Below, piece after piece: positions 4,716 through 17,663 of a DNA stretch of 25,140 bases. The notes below the pieces were generated by a model. It saw nothing but the letters and a program-made list of their open reading frames with translations, did not search any database and was not told the DNA's origin. The stretch spans positions 1 through 25,140 of the IMG/VR virus record IMGVR_UViG_3300043400_000002, one strand, 5' to 3'. The position numbers were made by a program, and so were the translations under genes. The stretch comes from a virus (taxonomy: Duplodnaviria > Caudoviricetes). The first letter of the stretch is position 1. The number at the start of each line of letters is the position of its first letter.

Positions 4716-4892
4716 TTGAGTTATAATTACAAGTACGATAAAGAGTATCAGACGTTGCAACAGTTTGATAAATATGGTATACTTCGGTCTAGTATGTCGA
4801 TGCCTCAGTCTGATCTTAACGAACTGGCTAGGTTGAACATCAAAGAAAATATTTTGCGAAAGGTAAACAATGACAGTCACACTAAAAGTTAA
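4716..4892 (+). CDS. Small hypothetical protein
   Basis: Fills the gap between pol and the Prs-like gene; GGAGG at 4706-4710 precedes in-frame TTG at 4716. Confidence 0.5.
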   Translation: MSYNYKYDKEYQTLQQFDKYGILRSSMSMPQSDLNELARLNIKENILRKVNNDSHTKS

Positions 4893-5676
4893 CGGGGTAC
4901 ACACTGACTTTAAACAGTGGAAATTTCCTGCTGGTGAAGTTGGTGTACAAGTCCCTCAGATTTCTCCTCATAGTAAAGTGCAAGTTTGGGCGCTTATGCC
5001 CACTTCAGATGATATCTTTACATGCTTGAATCTAATTGATGCAATTGGTAAACAAATCCACTGGTATAATATCGATGTGTATATGCCATATTTACCATAC
5101 GGTCGTCAAGATCGTGTATGCTCTACAGGAGAAAGTTTTGCGTTACAAGTTTTTGCAAAAGTTCTGACTTCTGTAATGTTCAATAAACTCGTAATCTTTG
5201 ATGCACACAGTAAAGAATCTATTAATCAATTTGGTTTTTGCGATACTTATGTAGAAAACAAGAGTCAAGCTGAATGCGCTAAATATCTTCCTCGCTTTGA
5301 TGCATTGATTGCACCAGACAAAGGAGCCAAAGATAAAGTAATTACACACTACCAAGTCTCTGCGTTTCAAACTCCAGTATTTACAATCTTGAAAGAACGT
5401 AAAGATGGAAAAGTTACCTATTTGGACTTTTCATATGATACAATCAAAGGTGATGTATGTGTAGTTGATGACCTTTGTGATGGTGGTGCTACTTTTATTG
5501 CGTTAGCTGAAATGCTAGACCGTACACAACCAAACATCGGAAAGTTGAATTTGTATGTAACACACGGAATTTTTTCCAAGGGTGTATCTGATTTGTACAA
5601 ATACTATGATACAATCTATGTTCACAACCTGATGAACAAAATGGTTGAAGAAGCCGAATCTGTAACTGTTATTTAA
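4870..5676 (+). CDS. prs: Ribose-phosphate pyrophosphokinase-like protein (probable NARP1 Adps, ADPR-PP synthetase)
   Basis: FPAGE, PYLPYGRQDR, DAHS, APDKGA, PRT loop VVDDLCDGGATF, VTHGIFS; directly upstream of the Nampt-like gene. Confidence 0.9.
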   Translation: MTVTLKVNGVHTDFKQWKFPAGEVGVQVPQISPHSKVQVWALMPTSDDIFTCLNLIDAIGKQIHWYNIDVYMPYLPYGRQDRVCSTGESFALQVFAKVLTSVMFNKLVIFDAHSKESINQFGFCDTYVENKSQAECAKYLPRFDALIAPDKGAKDKVITHYQVSAFQTPVFTILKERKDGKVTYLDFSYDTIKGDVCVVDDLCDGGATFIALAEMLDRTQPNIGKLNLYVTHGIFSKGVSDLYKYYDTIYVHNLMNKMVEEAESVTVI

Positions 5677-5684
5677 GGAGAACT

Positions 5685-7409
5685 ATGACTTACATCGATC
5701 CAATTACCGCTTGTGATTTCTACAAAGTAGGCCACAAAGCTATGTATCCTACAGGTACTGAAGTTATCTATAGTAATTTCACACCTCGCTCTAATAAACT
5801 TGCACCAAGTGCTGCTGGCGTAAAACCAAACAAAGTACTGTTTTACGGTTTGCAAGGTTTCATCAAGTCGTTCCTAATTGAACAATTTAACGAGAACTTT
5901 TTCAACCGTACAAAAGAAGAAGTAATTGCTAAATACAATCGTCGCATGAACACTTCACTTGGTCAAGGTTCTGTAGATGCTTCACACATTGCAGCTTTGC
6001 ACGATCTAGGTTTTCTACCAATTGAAATCAAGGCACTACCTGAAGGTTCACTTGTAGATATCAAAGTCCCTGTTCTTACTGTAAAGAATACACTACCTGA
6101 ATTTTTCTGGTTGACCAACTATCTAGAAACCGTATTCAGTAATGAACTGTGGAAACAAATCACTACAGCCACAACTGCATTTGAATACCGCAAAATTCTT
6201 ACTCGTTTTGCTAAAGATACTGGCGCTCCTTTGGACTTTGTACTTTGGCAAGGTCACGACTTCAGTTATCGTGGTTTGAGTGGTGTTGCTGATGCTACAA
6301 GCGCCAGCGGACATTTGGTTTCATTCCTTGGTACTGACACTATTCCGGCTATTGACTATCTGGAAGCTTACTACGGTGGTTTGAATACATTTGTAGGTGG
6401 TTCTGTTCCTGCTACAGAGCACTCAGTGATGTGTGCAGGTGGTAAAGAAACTGAAGAAGACACTTTCCGTCGATTGATTACAGAAGTACATCCTTCTGGT
6501 GTAGTTAGCATTGTTAGTGATACTTGGGACTTCTGGCACACTCTGACTGTTACATCTGCAAATCTGAAACAAGAAATCTTGAATCGCACACCTAATGAGA
6601 TTGGTCTAGCTAAAGTTGTATTCCGTCCTGATAGCGGTGATCCTGCGGATATTCTTTGTGGTACTGAAGTAATCGTTGCTGAATCTCTAGATAAAGCTGA
6701 GGAATTTGTACAAGACTGTGTTATGGCTGAGAATGCAGATTTGACTGCTTATGAATGCGGAGCTTCTTCTTATACACAAGTAGTTAAAGTAAAAGACAAA
6801 TACTATAACTTTACTGTGTTTCCAGAGTGGAATCGTCACGATAAAACTTACTATTATATCGATGGTTGGAACATGCCTATGATTGAAGAAATTCAACTAA
6901 CACCTACACAAAAAGGAGCTGTAGAATGCTTGTGGGATATTTTTGGTGGTACAATCAACGCTCAAGGTTACAAGATGCTGAACGAGCGTGTAGGCTTGAT
7001 TTATGGTGATTCAATTACTCTTGATCGTGCTGAGGATATTTTGCGTCGATTGAAAGAGAAAGGTTTCGCATCCAGTAACATTGTGTTTGGTGTAGGTTCT
7101 TACACATATCAGTATGTAACCCGCGATAGTTTCGGTTTTGCTATGAAAGCAACATACGCTGAAATCAATGGTCAAGCTACTGAATTGTTCAAAGACCCGG
7201 TAACAGACGGTGGAACTAAAAAGTCAGCCAAAGGTCTATTGCGAGTTGAACGTGAAGGTGATAATTTCGTCCTTTATGATCAGCAAACTAAAGAGCAAGA
7301 ATCTCAGGGTTGCTTGCAGACAGTATTCAAGGATGGTGTTCTTGTGAAAGAAACAACTCTTGAAGAAATTCGAAAATTAGTTGACCAACAGCTTGAAACT
7401 GTGGTATAA
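5685..7409 (+). CDS. nadV: Nicotinamide phosphoribosyltransferase-like protein (probable NARP1 Namat)
   Basis: DFYKVGH, HDFSYRG, GTDT, PATEHSVMC, SIVSDTWD, RPDSGDP, IYGDSIT, GVGSYTYQ, RDSFGFAMKAT, KDPVTD...KKSAKG; SD AAGGAG. Confidence 0.93.
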   Translation: MTYIDPITACDFYKVGHKAMYPTGTEVIYSNFTPRSNKLAPSAAGVKPNKVLFYGLQGFIKSFLIEQFNENFFNRTKEEVIAKYNRRMNTSLGQGSVDASHIAALHDLGFLPIEIKALPEGSLVDIKVPVLTVKNTLPEFFWLTNYLETVFSNELWKQITTATTAFEYRKILTRFAKDTGAPLDFVLWQGHDFSYRGLSGVADATSASGHLVSFLGTDTIPAIDYLEAYYGGLNTFVGGSVPATEHSVMCAGGKETEEDTFRRLITEVHPSGVVSIVSDTWDFWHTLTVTSANLKQEILNRTPNEIGLAKVVFRPDSGDPADILCGTEVIVAESLDKAEEFVQDCVMAENADLTAYECGASSYTQVVKVKDKYYNFTVFPEWNRHDKTYYYIDGWNMPMIEEIQLTPTQKGAVECLWDIFGGTINAQGYKMLNERVGLIYGDSITLDRAEDILRRLKEKGFASSNIVFGVGSYTYQYVTRDSFGFAMKATYAEINGQATELFKDPVTDGGTKKSAKGLLRVEREGDNFVLYDQQTKEQESQGCLQTVFKDGVLVKETTLEEIRKLVDQQLETVV

Positions 7410-7410
7410 T
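7381..7410 (+). promoter_or_regulatory. sigma70-like promoter for the tRNA/ncRNA array
   Basis: TTGACC (7381-7386), 18 nt spacer, TATAAT (7405-7410), extended -10 TG; overlaps the Nampt stop codon and lies 9 nt before the first RNA gene. Confidence 0.75.
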
Positions 7411-7419
7411 TAAGGTTAA

Positions 7420-7498
7420 GCGAGTGTACCGGAACGCTCTTCTAAAGCGTAGTACCGTAATGGAGTCAATGGGGGTTCGAATCCCTCCACTCGCACCA
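7420..7498 (+). tRNA. Non-canonical (D-armless) tRNA-Arg(UCU)
   Basis: Acceptor GCGAGTG/CACTCGC + A-CCA; T-arm GGGGG-TTCGAAT-CCCTC; anticodon arm ACGCT-CTTCTAA-AGCGT (TCT at 7441-7443); only 7 nt between acceptor and anticodon stems; 20-nt extra region. Confidence 0.8.
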
Positions 7499-7504
7499 AA
7501 CAAT

Positions 7505-7606
7505 GTAACTGTAGCTCAGTTGGTAGAGCAGGAACCTCTTCACGGTGAAGGACCAAATGCCAGAGGGTAAACCAAGCCGATGGTTCGAATCCATCCAGTT
7601 ACACCA
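7505..7606 (+). ncRNA. tRNA-like RNA with enlarged non-canonical anticodon arm (no assignable anticodon)
   Basis: Acceptor GTAACTG/CAGTTAC + A-CCA; D-arm GCTC-AGTTGGTA-GAGC; T-arm GATGG-TTCGAAT-CCATC; 43-nt arm 7531-7573 instead of 17 nt. Confidence 0.8.
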
Positions 7607-7610
7607 AAAC

Positions 7611-7700
7611 GGACAAATTGAAATGATCATCTGATGCTGATGTGAAACTTCCTAATAGCATAGGAGGAAAATGAGAGTTTGATTCTCTCTTTGTCCACCA
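7611..7700 (+). ncRNA. tRNA-like RNA: acceptor and T-arm with two internal hairpins
   Basis: Acceptor GGACAAA/TTTGTCC + A-CCA; T-arm GAGAG-TTTGATT-CTCTC; hairpins CATC/GATG (7628-7642) and CTTCCTA/TAGGAGG (7648-7667). Confidence 0.72.
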
Positions 7701-7703
7701 ATT

Positions 7704-7771
7704 TAAGATGAAGATATTGGTTCGATTCCAATCTTGTGAAAGTAGTTTAATATGGACAAACATTCATCTTA
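7704..7771 (+). ncRNA. Circularly permuted tRNA mimic (T-arm before D-arm; YrlA Y-RNA-like topology)
   Basis: Closing stem TAAGATGAA/TTCATCTTA; T-arm ATTGG-TTCGATT-CCAAT; mini acceptor CTT-GTGA-AAG; TA; D-arm GTTT-AATATGGAC-AAAC. Confidence 0.72.
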
Positions 7772-7782
7772 TTCATAAATTA

Positions 7783-7968
7783 GTCCCGCTTATGCCTGTT
7801 GCTCACATCCCTAGAGTTAGCGGCACACTTCAAGCGCCATATGAGCATAAATCTTGCCGCATATGGGTAAAACATACGAGTGATGGTGGACTTCGTATGC
7901 GGATTTTCTAGACCAAAGGATCGTCGTCCGGATGTAACAAGACACTATAATACCTGTTTAGGGACAGG
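7783..7968 (+). ncRNA. Putative structured RNA with pseudoknot
   Basis: Helices ACATCC/GGATGT, CTAGAG/TTCTAG, CATACGA/TCGTATG, and crossing helices GCGGCA/TGCCGC and CCATAT/ATATGG; boundaries uncertain. Confidence 0.55.
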
Positions 7969-8087
7969 AGTTATAGTTCAGTATATTTCAGGTTGGGTAA
8001 ACGAACGTGGTTTACTATTTGGGATGACAAATCAGGCGTTAATCTGAGGGGTAGCATCTAAGATACGGAATATGCTGAACTATGACT
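7969..8087 (+). ncRNA. Putative ~120-nt three-way-junction RNA
   Basis: 21-bp closing stem 7969-7989/8067-8087 (three G-U pairs) enclosing two hairpins; ends 1 nt before the tRNA-CAU. Confidence 0.62.
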
Positions 8088-8088
8088 T

Positions 8089-8164
8089 GCGACAGTAACT
8101 CAGTGGTGAGAGTAGGGAACTCATAATTCCTTGGTCGGTGGTTCAATTCCATCCTGTCGCACCA
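8089..8164 (+). tRNA. tRNA-Met(CAU), elongator Met or Ile2 type
   Basis: Canonical 76-nt cloverleaf: GCGACAG/CTGTCGC + A-CCA, ACTC/GAGT D-stem, GGGAA-CTCATAA-TTCCT, GGTGG-TTCAATT-CCATC. The 1-72 pair is intact, so it is not an initiator. Confidence 0.95.
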
Positions 8165-8178
8165 AACAAAGGAGAACT

Positions 8179-8997
8179 ATGAAAAACTTATTGATCGGTT
8201 CACAAGCGTTACAATACTGGAGTGCTACCTTCAAAGCAAAGCCAGATTCAGATTCAGATTGGGATATTATCAGTGAACATAAGATAACTGACGATATAAA
8301 ACGCATTGAGCATCATACGTTTGATCAGGTCGGTAACTATGATCTGCTAAACTATGCAAGTACGCATTGGATTGAAATTGCAGGTCAAAGAGTTTACGTA
8401 GTTAATCCTATTGGTCTTACTATTGTAAAGCGTAGTCATCTGTGGCGTGATCGCAAGTTTGAAAAGCACATGACGCAATACAATATGCATTTAAAGACAT
8501 ATCGTGAATTCTTTACAGATAAGGATGAAGATGTACTAAATAAGCGCATCAAGCTTACTATGTCAGAATACCCACAAGGTAATCCAAACTTGATGCAAAC
8601 AGTAGAAGATTTCTTTGATGATGCAGTAACTAAGAAGTACAATCATGATTACTTACACGAGTTGTTTGCTTACCATGAAGAGCCCTTGTATAAAAAATTA
8701 CAAAAAGATTCGAGTTTAGCTTGGTGTGACAAAAATCTGTGGTACAATCTAAATCATGTAGACAAACTTAGATGCATTGCAGAGGAAGCTTATGTTATTT
8801 CAACCGAAAGGTTCTTAGTACCTAGCGATTGGACTACACCAGCTAAACTAGCGTTTTACAAGTCGGTCAACAAGATTTGTACTACACTATGTTCAGGTTG
8901 GTTTCGTGACTATGCAATTGACAACTATACAGAAGTCTTGGATATGTTTGATACTGCTAAGGTTGAGAATGTTAAACAAATTTTACTAAAGGAGTAA
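8179..8997 (+). CDS. Putative Pol-beta-superfamily nucleotidyltransferase-like phage protein
   Basis: Start moved to ATG 8179 (SD AAGGAG; the track start 8131 lies inside the tRNA). N-terminal LIGS...DSDWDII matches the hG[GS]-x(n)-DhD NTase signature. Confidence 0.6.
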   Translation: MKNLLIGSQALQYWSATFKAKPDSDSDWDIISEHKITDDIKRIEHHTFDQVGNYDLLNYASTHWIEIAGQRVYVVNPIGLTIVKRSHLWRDRKFEKHMTQYNMHLKTYREFFTDKDEDVLNKRIKLTMSEYPQGNPNLMQTVEDFFDDAVTKKYNHDYLHELFAYHEEPLYKKLQKDSSLAWCDKNLWYNLNHVDKLRCIAEEAYVISTERFLVPSDWTTPAKLAFYKSVNKICTTLCSGWFRDYAIDNYTEVLDMFDTAKVENVKQILLKE

Positions 8998-8998
8998 T

Positions 8999-9358
8999 AT
9001 GCAAAATAAACTAATTGATAAAGTCGAAGCATTACTTGTAGAGGCTGATCGAGATGTTCAACGTGAATTTTTTAATAACGAGATTAGTGGTTCTGAACCT
9101 AGCAGGTGGGACGAACAAGAAGTTGTAGAGTTCAAAAGTGAAATGAAAGAAGCTGGAATTGCTTTTGAATTTGTAGACCGTTATGGCGGTGAAGAGCAAG
9201 GATCGGACTATTGGAGTGTTTACTCATTCTCAGATGGAATGCAAGTTGTATTCATCAAGTTCGATGGTTACTATGCATCTTATGATGGTTCAACCTACGA
9301 GGAGTTCTACGAAGTGCGAGCTGTAGAAAAAACCATTACTGTATTTGAAAAGAAATAA
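8999..9358 (+). CDS. Acidic hypothetical phage protein (paralog 1)
   Basis: SD AAGGAG; shares VD.YGGEEQGSDYW.V..FS...F.KF.GYYAS..GS.Y with the next ORF. Confidence 0.85.
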   Translation: MQNKLIDKVEALLVEADRDVQREFFNNEISGSEPSRWDEQEVVEFKSEMKEAGIAFEFVDRYGGEEQGSDYWSVYSFSDGMQVVFIKFDGYYASYDGSTYEEFYEVRAVEKTITVFEKK

Positions 9359-9368
9359 GGAGAGTAAC

Positions 9369-9680
9369 ATGAGTCTTAAAGAAACACTGGACATCATCTT
9401 TGAAGAAGTAAAGCATGGTGATTTAGAAGGTATGATGCAAGAAGGTTGCTATGGTACAATCGAAACTGCACTTGACAATCAACTCATCAGTTGTGATGTT
9501 GTAGATAGTTACGGTGGCGAAGAACAAGGTTCTGACTACTGGTGTGTATGGAAGTTCAGCAAAGATGGTGAAGAATGCTTTGTTAAGTTCTATGGTTATT
9601 ACGCATCGCACTACGGTTCAGAATACCAAGGTTTTAAATTTGTAACACCTGTACAAAAGCTTATGACTGTTTACGAGTAA
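9369..9680 (+). CDS. Acidic hypothetical phage protein (paralog 2)
   Basis: SD AAGGAG before ATG 9369; same motif as the previous ORF. Confidence 0.85.
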   Translation: MSLKETLDIIFEEVKHGDLEGMMQEGCYGTIETALDNQLISCDVVDSYGGEEQGSDYWCVWKFSKDGEECFVKFYGYYASHYGSEYQGFKFVTPVQKLMTVYE

Positions 9681-10982: not shown

Positions 10983-11360
10983 ATGAGAGTTATTATTGCT
11001 GGTGGTAGAAATATTACAGACTATAATGTTGTAAAAATTGCATATCATAAATCCGGTCTTCAAGCTACCGAAATTGTTTCAGGTGCTGCTAAAGGTGTAG
11101 ATTATCTTGGTGAACTATTTGCAAAAGATAATGGTATTTCAATTAAAAGATTCCCTGCAGATTGGAACAAATATGGTAAACGTGCCGGACCGTTGCGTAA
11201 TCTAGAGATGGCTGAATATGCAGATGCGTTGATTGCTATTTGGGATGGAGAAAGTAAAGGAACAGCTAACATGATTTCACAAGCTAGATTAAAAAATTTA
11301 AAAGTCTTTGTTTACTTAGTCGGAGAAAAATACTATGACGCAGCGAATCCTAATCATTGA
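10983..11360 (+). CDS. YspA/DUF2493-type SLOG family protein
   Basis: MRVIIAGGR, IVSGAAKGVD, FPADWNKYGKRAGPLRN.EM, AIWDGESKGTANMI. Confidence 0.85.
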   Translation: MRVIIAGGRNITDYNVVKIAYHKSGLQATEIVSGAAKGVDYLGELFAKDNGISIKRFPADWNKYGKRAGPLRNLEMAEYADALIAIWDGESKGTANMISQARLKNLKVFVYLVGEKYYDAANPNH

Positions 11361-15036: not shown

Positions 15037-15536
15037 GCAACGAATACAATATTTCAGATTTTCAACTTGATTGTTACGCTTTCAATGAGATTGCAGGTAA
15101 GCACAATTTAACTGCACTGAAAGATATTGAGTTTCAGTATAACCTAATTGCTGAAGAAGCTAAGGAGATTAAAGAAAAAGGTATCGACAAGAACAACGTC
15201 AAAGAAACATTAGACGGTGTTATTGACGTAATGGTTACTGCACTTGGTCTATTGCAAAAGCTAGAATATCTTGGTGTAGACACTAACAAAGCAATGAAAG
15301 ACACAGCAGAGAATAATCTAACAAAATATCCTGCAAGAGAACTAACCGCAATTCAAACTGCACAAAAATATGAAGAAGACGGTATTCCGGTTACTGTAGA
15401 ATACAACTCAAATTACGAACTATTCGTTATCAAAAACTGGAATGATAAAGTTATGAAACCAATTGATTTTGAATCTAACGATCTATCTAATTGCATTCCT
15501 GCAGAACTATTGGAGAAAGGTTTTCAAGATGAATGA
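15033..15536 (+). CDS. MazG-like/PRA-PH-family NTP pyrophosphohydrolase
   Basis: LIAEEAKE...ETLDGVIDVMVTALG acidic motif, NNLTK, KVMKP. Confidence 0.78.
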   Translation: MSNEYNISDFQLDCYAFNEIAGKHNLTALKDIEFQYNLIAEEAKEIKEKGIDKNNVKETLDGVIDVMVTALGLLQKLEYLGVDTNKAMKDTAENNLTKYPARELTAIQTAQKYEEDGIPVTVEYNSNYELFVIKNWNDKVMKPIDFESNDLSNCIPAELLEKGFQDE

Positions 15537-16068
15537 GTATAAATTTGACAACGGGCTTTTATACAAGTATGAACCTCACGAAGAAGATTGTGTTGATTGT
15601 GTTTTTCGAAATAATTCACATGGTTGTATAGAATCACAACACTACGCAGATTGCAGTGAGCACGATATTATTTGGTTAAAAGTTGAAAGGGAGGATATGA
15701 AAAGTATTACACAAGAAATCAAAGACTGGAAAGATCAAGATGTAATTACCGAACAAACTCCCGGTACTAAATATGATCAAGGTAAGTTACAATATACATT
15801 AGTACCTCCGTATGCATTACGAGAAGTTGCACGTAATCTAACCGAAGGTCTAAAGAAGTACAAAGAGCGTAACAACTGGCAGAAGGTTGAAGGTGCAGAA
15901 CAACGCTACATGGATGCTCTTATGAGGCATTTTGAGGCTATTAGAAGGGGTGAAATCTATGATGTAGATAGTAGTGACCCAACTATCAGCCATATGTCTG
16001 CTGTAGCCGTTAATGCAATGTTCTTGCTTGAATTTATGTATAACCCTCAGCTGAAAGGTGAACAATGA
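15529..16068 (+). CDS. dATP/dGTP diphosphohydrolase (DUF5664-like) with N-terminal Cys-rich extension
   Basis: GTKYDQGK...LVPP.AL.EVA..LT.G..KY...NW...YMDALMRH...GE..D.DS...HM.AVA.NAMFL; start taken as ATG 15529. Confidence 0.85.
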   Translation: MNEYKFDNGLLYKYEPHEEDCVDCVFRNNSHGCIESQHYADCSEHDIIWLKVEREDMKSITQEIKDWKDQDVITEQTPGTKYDQGKLQYTLVPPYALREVARNLTEGLKKYKERNNWQKVEGAEQRYMDALMRHFEAIRRGEIYDVDSSDPTISHMSAVAVNAMFLLEFMYNPQLKGEQ

Positions 16069-16667: not shown

Positions 16668-17663
16668 ATGCTAGAAAAGCACCTGTTGCCAATTAATGAA
16701 CGACAAGAACCAGTTGAGTTTGCAGATCAACAATTAAAAGTATTTTGGCTACCAGATGAAATTAAAGTAGAGAAAGATATTCAAGACGTACTGGTGAATT
16801 TTACACCTGCAGAAAAACATGCTGTAATTACTACGTTAAAACTATTCAGTATCTACGAAACACATGCAGGGTCTGAATATTGGGGTGGACGGTTTAAGAA
16901 CATGTTTGATGGTGCAGAATTCCATCGTATGGCTTCCGTCTTCTCTATGTTTGAACTTGCAGTACATGCACCGTTTTATAACAAGATTAACCAGCTATTG
17001 CACATTGATACACCTGAGTTTTATACATCGTATTTGAACGATCCTGTGTTAAAACAACGTGTAGAGCATATTGGTGAGATTATCGATCATCCCGATGACT
17101 TGATTTCACTAGCAGCTTTTTCGATGGTGGAAGGTGTAATCTTGTATTCATCTTTTGCATTCTTAAAGCACTACCAATCTCAAGGTAAGAACAAGTTAAT
17201 GAATATTGTACGAGGGATTAATTTCTCAGTGCGTGATGAAAATATGCATTCTACTGGTGGAGCTTGGGCTTTCAAGTACAACTTAGAGCAAGAGAAAGCT
17301 TCAATGACTTCTGAGCAATTCGAGAAAAGAAAAGCTGAGATTGAAGCACAAGTTCGATTGGTAGCACAAAAGCTATATGAGCACGAATGCCAAATCATTG
17401 CTAAGTTATTTGAGCAAGGTGAAATCAAAGGTATTACTGCACATCAACTGGAAAATTTTGTACAATCTCGTGTAAACGAATGTTTAAAGCAACTAGGGTT
17501 TGCAAAAGAGTACGATGTAAAGTATAATCCAATTGCGGAATACTTCTACAAGGGTATCAACGATTACACATTCAATGACTTCTTCAGTGGTATGGGTAAT
17601 CAGTATCACCGTAATTGGGACAGTGCAGGATTTGTTTGGAAAAAGGAGAACGACAGTGAGTAA
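16668..17663 (+). CDS. nrdB: Class I ribonucleotide reductase beta subunit
   Basis: FWLPDEI..EKD, ELAVHAPFY (ExxH plus radical Tyr), VEGVILYSSF, RDENMH, FNDFF...NQY. Confidence 0.95.
   Translation: MLEKHLLPINERQEPVEFADQQLKVFWLPDEIKVEKDIQDVLVNFTPAEKHAVITTLKLFSIYETHAGSEYWGGRFKNMFDGAEFHRMASVFSMFELAVHAPFYNKINQLLHIDTPEFYTSYLNDPVLKQRVEHIGEIIDHPDDLISLAAFSMVEGVILYSSFAFLKHYQSQGKNKLMNIVRGINFSVRDENMHSTGGAWAFKYNLEQEKASMTSEQFEKRKAEIEAQVRLVAQKLYEHECQIIAKLFEQGEIKGITAHQLENFVQSRVNECLKQLGFAKEYDVKYNPIAEYFYKGINDYTFNDFFSGMGNQYHRNWDSAGFVWKKENDSE

Follow-up and report, generated by a model that had tools for sequence, protein, structure and literature searches.

A modular phage tRNA and stable-RNA operon headed by a strand-swapped tRNA-Arg(UCU)

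The stretch of DNA analysed here (the window; 25,140 nucleotides, positions 1 to 25,140 of the virus record IMGVR_UViG_3300043400_000002, Caudoviricetes) carries genes for an RNA ligase, a primase-helicase, a DNA polymerase, a phosphoribosyl pyrophosphate (PRPP)-synthetase-like protein and NAMPT, followed by an array of seven RNA units and then by a gene for a DUF7277+DUF7275 protein (Pfam, PHROGs). The PRPP-synthetase-like and NAMPT genes together make up the NARP1 pair. We found that the locus is a modular phage tRNA and stable-RNA operon whose content varies among relatives: the units themselves, the conserved folds of units 1, 2, 4, 5 and 6, a fixed order and the turnover of optional units between close relatives are established here. 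The phage is a freshwater, lytic phage close to Limnohabitans phage DC31, its nearest cultured relative (62% identity between the DUF7275 proteins), which carries units 1, 5 and 6. DC31 is described as a lytic phage with 6 reported tRNA genes, and the available portion of that paper is silent on non-coding RNAs and HNH genes (PMC12195039). The features of the locus are listed below, with the number of distinct related arrays, out of 43, in which an optional unit was present.

4870..7409, + strand: PRPP-synthetase-like and NAMPT genes, upstream neighbours of the array (Pfam, PHROGs)
7381..7410, + strand: promoter-like site of sigma-70 type that agrees with the consensus at 11 of 12 positions, has an extended -10 and overlaps the NAMPT gene at its end
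7420..7498, + strand: unit 1, strand-swapped tRNA-Arg(UCU) (Rfam tRNA, 44 bits, D arm deleted; covariation in relatives)
7505..7606, + strand: unit 2, tRNA body with the anticodon loop replaced by a folded element (9 distinct variants; 5 of 43 arrays)
7611..7700, + strand: unit 3, acceptor, two inner hairpins, T arm and ACCA (folding z -2.5; 4 distinct variants; 6 of 43 arrays)
7704..7772, + strand: unit 4, circularly permuted tRNA elbow (7 distinct variants; 3 of 43 arrays)
7781..7977, + strand: unit 5, ornate multi-pseudoknot RNA of 197 nt, 184-245 nt in relatives (covariation in 41 sequences)
7970..8086, + strand: unit 6, three-way junction with a 20-bp closing stem (folding z -6.6; 21 of 43 arrays)
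8089..8164, + strand: unit 7, canonical tRNA with a CAT anticodon (ARAGORN; Rfam 68.5 bits)
8179..8997, + strand: DUF7277+DUF7275 protein, likely with an N-terminal nucleotidyltransferase-type fold (Pfam; ribosome-binding site at 8169-8174)

A first-pass annotation of this DNA, made from the letters alone, had described seven packed RNA units behind one promoter, the first four set apart by spacers of 6, 4 and 3 nt and three units ending in A-CCA. This layout was confirmed, with a promoter-like site at its head and the ACCA ends on units 1-3. The promoter-like site contains the TG of an extended -10 and is found at the same slot in 35 of 41 distinct related arrays; weaker promoter-like sites occur at chance level (9 found as compared to 8.5 in shuffled sequences). 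Units 5 and 6 share 8 nt (7970-7977), over which their helices are mutually exclusive. ARAGORN called units 2 and 7 and Rfam units 1, 2 and 7 as tRNAs, in agreement with the expectation that scanners would report only part of the array. The same annotation had taken only the last unit to be a normal tRNA; unit 7 is indeed canonical, but units 1 and 2 are also called by Rfam and unit 1 is probably a working tRNA. Unit 7 is not of the initiator type (G1-C72, without the three G-C pairs) and may be Met or Ile2.

Units 3-6 match no Rfam family above threshold, and the novelty of the array, which had been tied to this comparison, was not refuted by it. When E values up to 10 were allowed over 6500-9000, only sub-threshold matches appeared beyond tRNA (beta_tmRNA on a T-loop, YrlA where units 1 and 2 meet, and minus-strand Plastid-ycf2), and these were discarded as spurious. 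Neither the strand-swapped tRNA nor any of units 2-6 exists in Rfam as a family of its own, and no description of them was found in the literature searched (subscription papers lay mostly outside it and supplements were not covered); the strand-swapped tRNA was not found in the available part of PMC12482277. Two open reading frames (ORFs) over the array (67 and 55 aa) were rejected as protein-coding genes: the 67-aa one has no Pfam or PHROG match, and the region tolerates insertions and deletions of any length. No strong terminator was found between the array and the DUF7277+DUF7275 gene. The folding energy of single sequences was strong for unit 6 (z -6.6), unit 7 (z -2.8) and unit 3 (z -2.5) and unremarkable for units 1, 2, 4 and 5 (z from -0.9 to -1.7), and a sliding scan of minimum free energy in 120-nt windows gave no clear signal in the array. 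The case therefore rests on the relatives, where covariation is the evidence beyond chance. Compensatory changes were in fact found in homologues, a check that the first-pass annotation had proposed, and the covariation in units 1, 2, 4, 5 and 6 bears out its view that the paired stems reflect selection and not decay.

Unit 1 is made of a 7-bp acceptor, U8-A9, a 3-bp helix, the GG and A20 bases of a D-loop, U48, a T arm and ACCA. It has the 7-bp acceptor, the T arm, the anticodon arm with U33 and the U8-A9 of a canonical tRNA, and lacks the canonical D stem-loop between positions 9 and 26. Its parts follow a swapped plan, in which U8-A9 and four bases precede the anticodon arm, and a link of 3-13 nt, the pairing strand, the D-loop signature and the T arm come after it. 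The unit had been described as having no D-arm; instead, a D helix does form, by pairing of the bases before the anticodon arm with a strand 3' of that arm, and the D-loop bases follow. The Arg identity bases A20, C35 and U/G36 are present, with positions numbered by analogy. The unit is identical to the copy of DC31 over 79 nt.

A search pattern consisting only of the D-loop and T-loop signatures, with the anticodon and position 20 left free, matched at least 120 viral loci (about 220 estimated), 104 of them distinct. The counts that follow are among the matches listed, of which 71 distinct ones passed filters on the acceptor, anticodon stem and T stem; the swapped helix was not used as a filter. 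The three pairs of this helix hold in 71, 71 and 65 of the 71 sequences (in the first pair, the pattern itself sets one of the two bases), and the two free pairs gave 136 paired cells as compared to 60.8 ± 5.5 in shuffles, whose maximum was 79. At least 12 different sequences of the helix occur, while U8-A9, U33 and U48 are invariant (71/71). Arg anticodons are represented by TCT (49), TCG (5) and ACG (2), with A20 in 55 of these 56 tRNAs, and the TAT, GAT and CAT types have U20 and A73 in 15/15. In bacteria the main determinant of Arg identity is A20, and the elements given for Ile include U20 and A73 (PMC9976931). Since position 20 tracks the anticodon and the helix covaries, unit 1 is probably charged, and we consider it quite likely, as far as sequence comparison can tell, that it is a charged, decoding tRNA.

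In seven of eight genomes the swapped form is the only Arg(TCT) tRNA in the tRNA regions scanned (5 kb in the case of SSBI34); one of these seven has 42 tRNAs, with two other Arg isoacceptors, and no canonical Arg(TCT) in the scanned regions. A reading of all altered units as decoys is not supported: unit 1 keeps synthetase identity bases matched to its anticodon, replaces the canonical tRNA-Arg(UCU) in those seven genomes and looks like a decoding tRNA. ARAGORN misses the swapped tRNA, so that phage tRNA sets are undercounted, and the records of DC31, PAK_P2, LPML1 and SSBI34 leave it unannotated. In a scan of GTDB (185,579 genomes) 13 of 82 matches passed the filter, of which 2 look spurious and 11 are credible; the swapped tRNA is rare in cellular genomes, and the cellular copies may be proviral. 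Swapped tRNAs with Ile-type anticodons were seen at loci L157, L165, L169, L175, L185, L188, L196, L204 and others (L and G numbers are our own for loci and genomes), at least 10 of them with TAT, an anticodon that is rare in bacteria. The D-armless mitochondrial tRNA-Ser, tRNA-Sec and tRNA-Pyl depart from the cloverleaf and yet work, as unit 1 probably does; the mitochondrial forms lose the D arm, whereas unit 1 keeps the helix and the loop bases in swapped strand order (PMC7609411). The words "bacteriophage", "viral" and "permuted" do not occur in the main text of that review, and the swapped form was not found in the part available.

Unit 2 keeps the acceptor, D arm, T arm and ACCA and, as had been noted, has no anticodon loop: in its place stands a small folded element whose loop can pair downstream, predicted to be a mini-pseudoknot. 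Among the 9 variants the inner 3-bp stem changes from U-A to C-G in 2 and the closing stem from U-A to G-C in 1, and the acceptor differs in sequence while most of its pairs survive; end pairs of the acceptor and CCA are missing from 3 distant variants. The "Arg(ACG)" call of ARAGORN for this unit was rejected, as it rests on bases that vary among relatives. Unit 3 is more than the acceptor and T arm described at first, as two further inner hairpins are present; it has no 7-nt anticodon loop with U33. Its 4 variants show two compensatory T-stem pairs, and the interior is nearly invariant, hence uninformative for covariation. The inner loops are complementary over 5 nt, and a loop-loop pair is possible from the sequence. 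A hammerhead reading of unit 3 was discarded, since pairings that the motif requires are missing and Rfam gave no match. In the pattern scans 6 of 12 loci were true relatives of unit 2 and 8 of 27 true relatives of unit 3, the remainder being chance matches.

Unit 4 is permuted, as the first-pass annotation stated: a closing stem encloses the T arm, a sealed mini-acceptor hairpin and the D arm, in this order. The closing stem is 8-9 bp long in 7 of 7 distinct variants, with compensatory changes. YrlA (RF02553) has the same order of T arm, acceptor hairpin and D arm and the same tRNA elbow bases, but unit 4 is 69 nt long and lacks the 5' GNCGAAN0-1G Ro-binding motif and the V stem-loop (PMC4201824). 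The YrlA model of Rfam gave no match at unit 4, its sole match (23 bits, cut-off 69) lying at 7470-7529, on the junction of units 1 and 2. No TROVE (Ro60) gene was found in 5 related records; the complete ones, DC31 and G002, lack unit 4, and both records that carry it are fragments. The window has no unexplained ORF of Ro60 size near the array. By the tests run, unit 4 has a YrlA-like elbow but is not a Y RNA. A pattern scan for permuted elbows gave 97 distinct matches, of which 32 passed a crude stem filter and 2 are close relatives of unit 4; none of 20 such loci scanned reached the YrlA cut-off. Tandem permuted tRNA elbows (T arm, sealed acceptor, D arm), a design that is common by this pattern, were observed on unrelated viral contigs (L288:801-913, L295:801-909 and L650:880-1060). 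A jumbo phage record (G008) carries a CTA-anticodon tRNA and a permuted tmRNA by ARAGORN (L712:12488-12564 and 17149-17516).

Unit 5 comprises a helix P1 (7782-7786/7901-7905), a slot for a T-loop hairpin, a pseudoknot (7884-7887/7912-7915), a hairpin at 7918-7929 whose loop pairs with 7941-7943, and a loop-loop pairing (7808-7813/7959-7964). In the alignment of 41 sequences, on which the structure was partly chosen and whose kinship can raise such scores, the 43 named pairs were 97.3% paired, with double changes at 18 pairs (193 cells); this score was reached by 0 of 500 shuffles, and slid controls gave 33-45%. The covariation list over all columns held many kinship-driven pairs, and only stacked pairs were used. 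The pseudoknot from the P5 loop was tested separately and scored 102 as compared to 91.6 ± 3.3 (6 of 5000 shuffles); the second pseudoknot shows 2 double changes. The loop-loop pair is 99% paired yet almost invariant, as P1 is, so that for these two the support is complementarity. The T-loop hairpin slot holds an alternative module in the window and in three relatives. Among annotated phages only DC31 matches unit 5. A group I intron reading was discarded because required pairings are missing and Rfam gave no match.

In each of 26 distinct variants of unit 6, the 7-nt loop (8003-8009 in the window) carries a palindrome of 4 nt in an unchanged register (ACGT in 21, CCGG in 4 and CGCG in 1, which represent about three independent states only), and from this loop we predict a homodimeric kissing loop through which unit 6 would dimerise. 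In one relative the closing stem is fully re-paired. The stretch shared with the last helix of unit 5 belongs to this stem, and relatives keep a long stem there and swap the insert. GOLLD and ROOL are, like units 5 and 6, phage RNAs of unassigned function near tRNA genes, with pseudoknots and kissing loops (the latter predicted in units 5 and 6), and GOLLD, ROOL and OLE multimers use kissing loops (PMC12286853); the palindromic loop of unit 6 likewise points to multimers. However, units 5 and 6 (197 and 117 nt) are far smaller than GOLLD and ROOL, and neither of the two Rfam models matched.

The 43 distinct arrays were collected from a search with the downstream gene (21 loci), a scan with the unit 5 pattern (55 loci, of which five, L044, L052, L055, L056 and L062, were chance matches and were dropped, and two were too short to align) and two further loci; as unit 5 served to collect the arrays, its constancy is in part a product of the sampling. 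Their order is fixed: promoter, tRNA-Arg slot, optional units, unit 5, long-stem slot and the gene for the nucleotidyltransferase-like protein (NTase). At least 5 modules other than those of the window swap into the array. The first slot is mostly occupied by tRNA-Arg(TCT), called by ARAGORN in 12 of 14 close loci, the other two being truncated. The array had been presented as flanked by NARP1 and an NTase-like gene; the second flank recurs, the NTase gene lying downstream in 34/43 arrays (5 of the other 9 are truncated), but NAMPT lies upstream in only 4/43. In an independent set collected through the NTase, where 63 of 80 metagenome loci had sufficient upstream DNA, T-loop motifs were found within 1 kb upstream in 36/63 and the strict unit 5 motif in 23/63. 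Proximity to NARP1 is therefore incidental; the NTase gene is a frequent neighbour of the array, though not an obligatory one. That units turn over from strain to strain is consistent with an arms race and suggests that diverse host defences exert pressure on the array.

Several of the swapped-in RNAs can be described. In 6/43 arrays (L014:3485-3600, also L001, L051, L059, L063 and L073) there is a unit with a tRNA body in which two hairpins replace the anticodon arm; it shares a loop motif with an RNA whose conserved inner hairpin is set in a long stem or in a tRNA-like acceptor (L011:3450-3570, L038, L064 and L074). An alternative insert of the long-stem slot after unit 5, conserved in sequence, occurs in 9/43 arrays (L014:3900-3990 and 8 others). 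Curvibacter phage P26059A (KY981271) has an unannotated row upstream of its NTase gene (L023:3020-3990), in which tRNA-Arg(TCT) is followed by at least 4 different RNAs, each closed by a long stem and none above the Rfam threshold. Upstream of unit 5 in the L069:1238 region (minus strand), the first-slot tRNA-Arg(TCT) has a normal D arm and an extra hairpin in the variable region. In DC31 an unannotated CCA-ending RNA with two T-loop hairpins lies behind tRNA-Met, downstream of the NTase (L022:5990-6090).

In the protein encoded downstream of the array, G7, S8, D27, D29 and E44 are invariant in 64 homologues, and we take this GS plus acidic triad (DxD..E) to be a Pol-beta-type motif. The structure model (pLDDT 92.7) gave MenT1 as its top match (Z 7.5, rmsd 4.1, 120 aligned, Foldseek E 0.023), followed by MenT4 and TglT. 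These enzymes match the N-terminal half, which has the conserved motif; identity to the MenT types is 10-15% and Z is 7.5 or less, and the C-terminal helical part is unmatched. A PDB sequence search found nothing. MenT-type enzymes modify tRNA 3' ends, adding nucleotides. On this modelling the protein likely belongs to the nucleotidyltransferase fold class. In phage DSS3_VP1 (L027) the homologue is near RNA ligase 2, metallophosphoesterase and NAMPT genes, with no tRNA gene within 4 kb, a neighbourhood that hints at an RNA-repair context.

We read the locus, with evenly balanced confidence, as a modular tRNA/stable-RNA cassette that would protect phage translation by means of working tRNAs plus non-decoding tRNA-shaped decoys. 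One promoter would give one transcript, which host RNases would process: units 1-3 and 7 would be freed by RNase P together with trimming at the 3' end, and units 4 and 6 through their long stems, acting as release signals of RNase III type. Unit 1 would keep the L shape by strand exchange, with A9 replacing A21, the post-anticodon strand replacing 10-19 and A15-U48 kept, and would be arginylated through A20/C35/U36 and read AGA. The swap would remove the canonical D-arm sequence and shape and protect the gene from tRNA-gene-cutting homing endonucleases, and perhaps also shield the RNA from shape-reading nucleases. Units 2-4, which would have no usable anticodon, would titrate tRNA-binding effectors by means of their elbows or CCA ends, units 1 and 7 would supply decoding, units 5 and 6 would act as compact RNAs and the NTase would act on RNA 3' ends. 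Counter-defence by the array, as first proposed, is plausible. Phage tRNA-Tyr rescues infection against Septu and retron-Eco7, possibly as a decoy or as a supplement, and the T5/T6 genes lie, as in some of the arrays, beside homing endonucleases; the T5/T6 tRNA-Tyr, be it resistant supplement or decoy, is however a canonical cloverleaf with local changes or raised dosage (PMC13096335). A bolder version, possible but doubtful, is that the swapped form is a second tRNA architecture, charged by host synthetases and read by ribosomes but missed by tRNA-cutting enzymes. It would head a swappable counter-defence island built only of RNA, with decoys that present elbows or CCA ends, a three-way-junction RNA that pairs with itself as a dimer and an ornate RNA with pseudoknots, and a tRNA 3'-end NTase from the same transcript would service the island.

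Several observations weigh against a protective cassette. No unit is linked to a defence system. The eighth genome, a jumbo, carries both the canonical and the swapped Arg(UCU); CCA is encoded in only 40 of the 71 swapped tRNAs among the matches listed, and kinship among sequences inflates the swapped-tRNA counts. AGA accounts for 18 of 164 Arg codons in ten window genes, so that codon demand is modest. Unit 5, the most constant part, is not tRNA-shaped, and the explanation is at its weakest on what units 5 and 6 do. The NTase occurs without unit 5, by the strict motif, in 40/63 metagenome loci, and since a Z of 7.5 is common by chance among unrelated models, its fold class is likely but its family is open. 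In four freshwater metatranscriptome runs of one study, contigs of related phages span the region, coding and non-coding alike (word shares 0.06-0.17); the beginning and end sites of the RNAs are not visible in these runs, as contigs of relatives only can show neither ends nor levels.

The link to homing endonucleases, which could by itself explain unit 1, also weighs against the protective cassette and leads to a rather unlikely alternative, selfish turnover: tRNA-gene-cutting homing endonucleases and recombination at shared tRNA-like ends would shuffle the units, unit 1 being an escape allele at the DNA level and the others late-infection housekeeping unrelated to defence. In DC31 and locus L078, a 10-nt remnant of canonical tRNA-Arg and the swapped copy stand on either side of an HNH gene, and the window shows the same layout minus the HNH segment, between 9-nt repeats. 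Within the 43 arrays HNH adjoins 4 of 5 swapped alleles, by two distinct insertions, and an HNH neighbour is also found in PAK_P2 and SSBI34 and is absent in LPML1. Among the matches listed with flanks, an endonuclease ORF adjoins 13/45 swapped tRNAs as compared to 3/45 canonical tRNA-Arg(TCT) controls (Fisher p 0.011, or 0.021 if one generic "endonuclease" is dropped, kinship being ignored in both; in a recheck 42 of 43 control loci were Arg(TCT) by ARAGORN). T4 offers a precedent, with segB, tRNA-Arg(UCU), rnaD (species 2) and rnaC (species 1) in one row, like DC31, and SegB cuts inside tRNA genes via a T-loop motif (PMC2330249). That motif is kept by the swapped tRNA, so SegB itself would not be escaped, and escape would need an enzyme reading the D or anticodon side. 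The endonuclease link is real but partial, and it ties the spread of unit 1 at least in part to these enzymes. No endonuclease adjoins 32/45 of the same swapped tRNAs, the window and L669 also lack one, and selfish turnover leaves the upkeep of units 2-6 unexplained.

We regard as improbable a reading in which unit 5, together with the unit 6 stem that overlaps it, is a functional partner of the NTase, be it as a ligand, as a scaffold, as a riboregulator or as a ribozyme for processing, and in which the tRNA-like units ride along or serve as substrates. Unit 5 precedes the NTase gene in most arrays, its last helix competes with the unit 6 stem, its three long-range pairings in less than 200 nt suit a compact catalytic or binding fold, and the nearest folds are those of the tRNA 3'-end modifiers named above. 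On the other side, four full-length loci (L040, L047, L049 and L053) have unit 5 and no NTase within 1.2 kb, no Rfam ribozyme or riboswitch matches unit 5, and the NTase family is widespread without it, occurring in 734 phage records, with the motif in only the minority of metagenome loci given above and no tRNA gene near the DSS3_VP1 homologue. Decay of the altered units into tRNA pseudogenes is hardly credible. The low folding z-scores of units 1, 2 and 4, the lost acceptor pairs and CCA of the three unit 2 relatives and the uninformative interior of unit 3 would suit it, but wherever a unit has enough variants, compensatory changes are present, unrelated phages show the same altered plans and the pairing of the unit 1 helix exceeds the shuffle maximum; decay is largely refuted by covariation.

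The placement of the array units behind tRNA-Arg in a phage tRNA row is that of T4 rnaC and rnaD, and rnaC resembles unit 3 in plan, folding into inner hairpins and a T arm close to the 3' terminus. When rnaC and rnaD were compared with the array and 10 loci (blastn, word 7), only a 13-nt T-loop in the array was common. The layout of the array therefore has a precedent, and its sequences do not. T4 differs also in that its tRNA-Arg keeps the canonical order, its endonuclease is GIY-YIG as compared to HNH here, and units here swap between strains. What the non-tRNA RNAs of phage tRNA rows do has, to our knowledge, been a question ever since T4 species 1 and 2, and four uncatalogued RNAs with natural presence/absence variants and a cultured relative, DC31, make it directly testable. 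If our reading of unit 1 is true, a natural swapped-core tRNA with matched identity bases would extend the range of known tRNA folds, and the decoys, should that reading be right, would add an RNA-only form of counter-defence against tRNA-targeting immunity.

Elsewhere in the window, two tandem paralogous small ORFs (8999-9680; phrog_8206 and phrog_18295, function unassigned) lie directly 3' of the NTase gene. The replication block contains a YAcAr SLOG-family gene (10983-11360) and a gene with a dATP/dGTP diphosphohydrolase domain (15463-16068).

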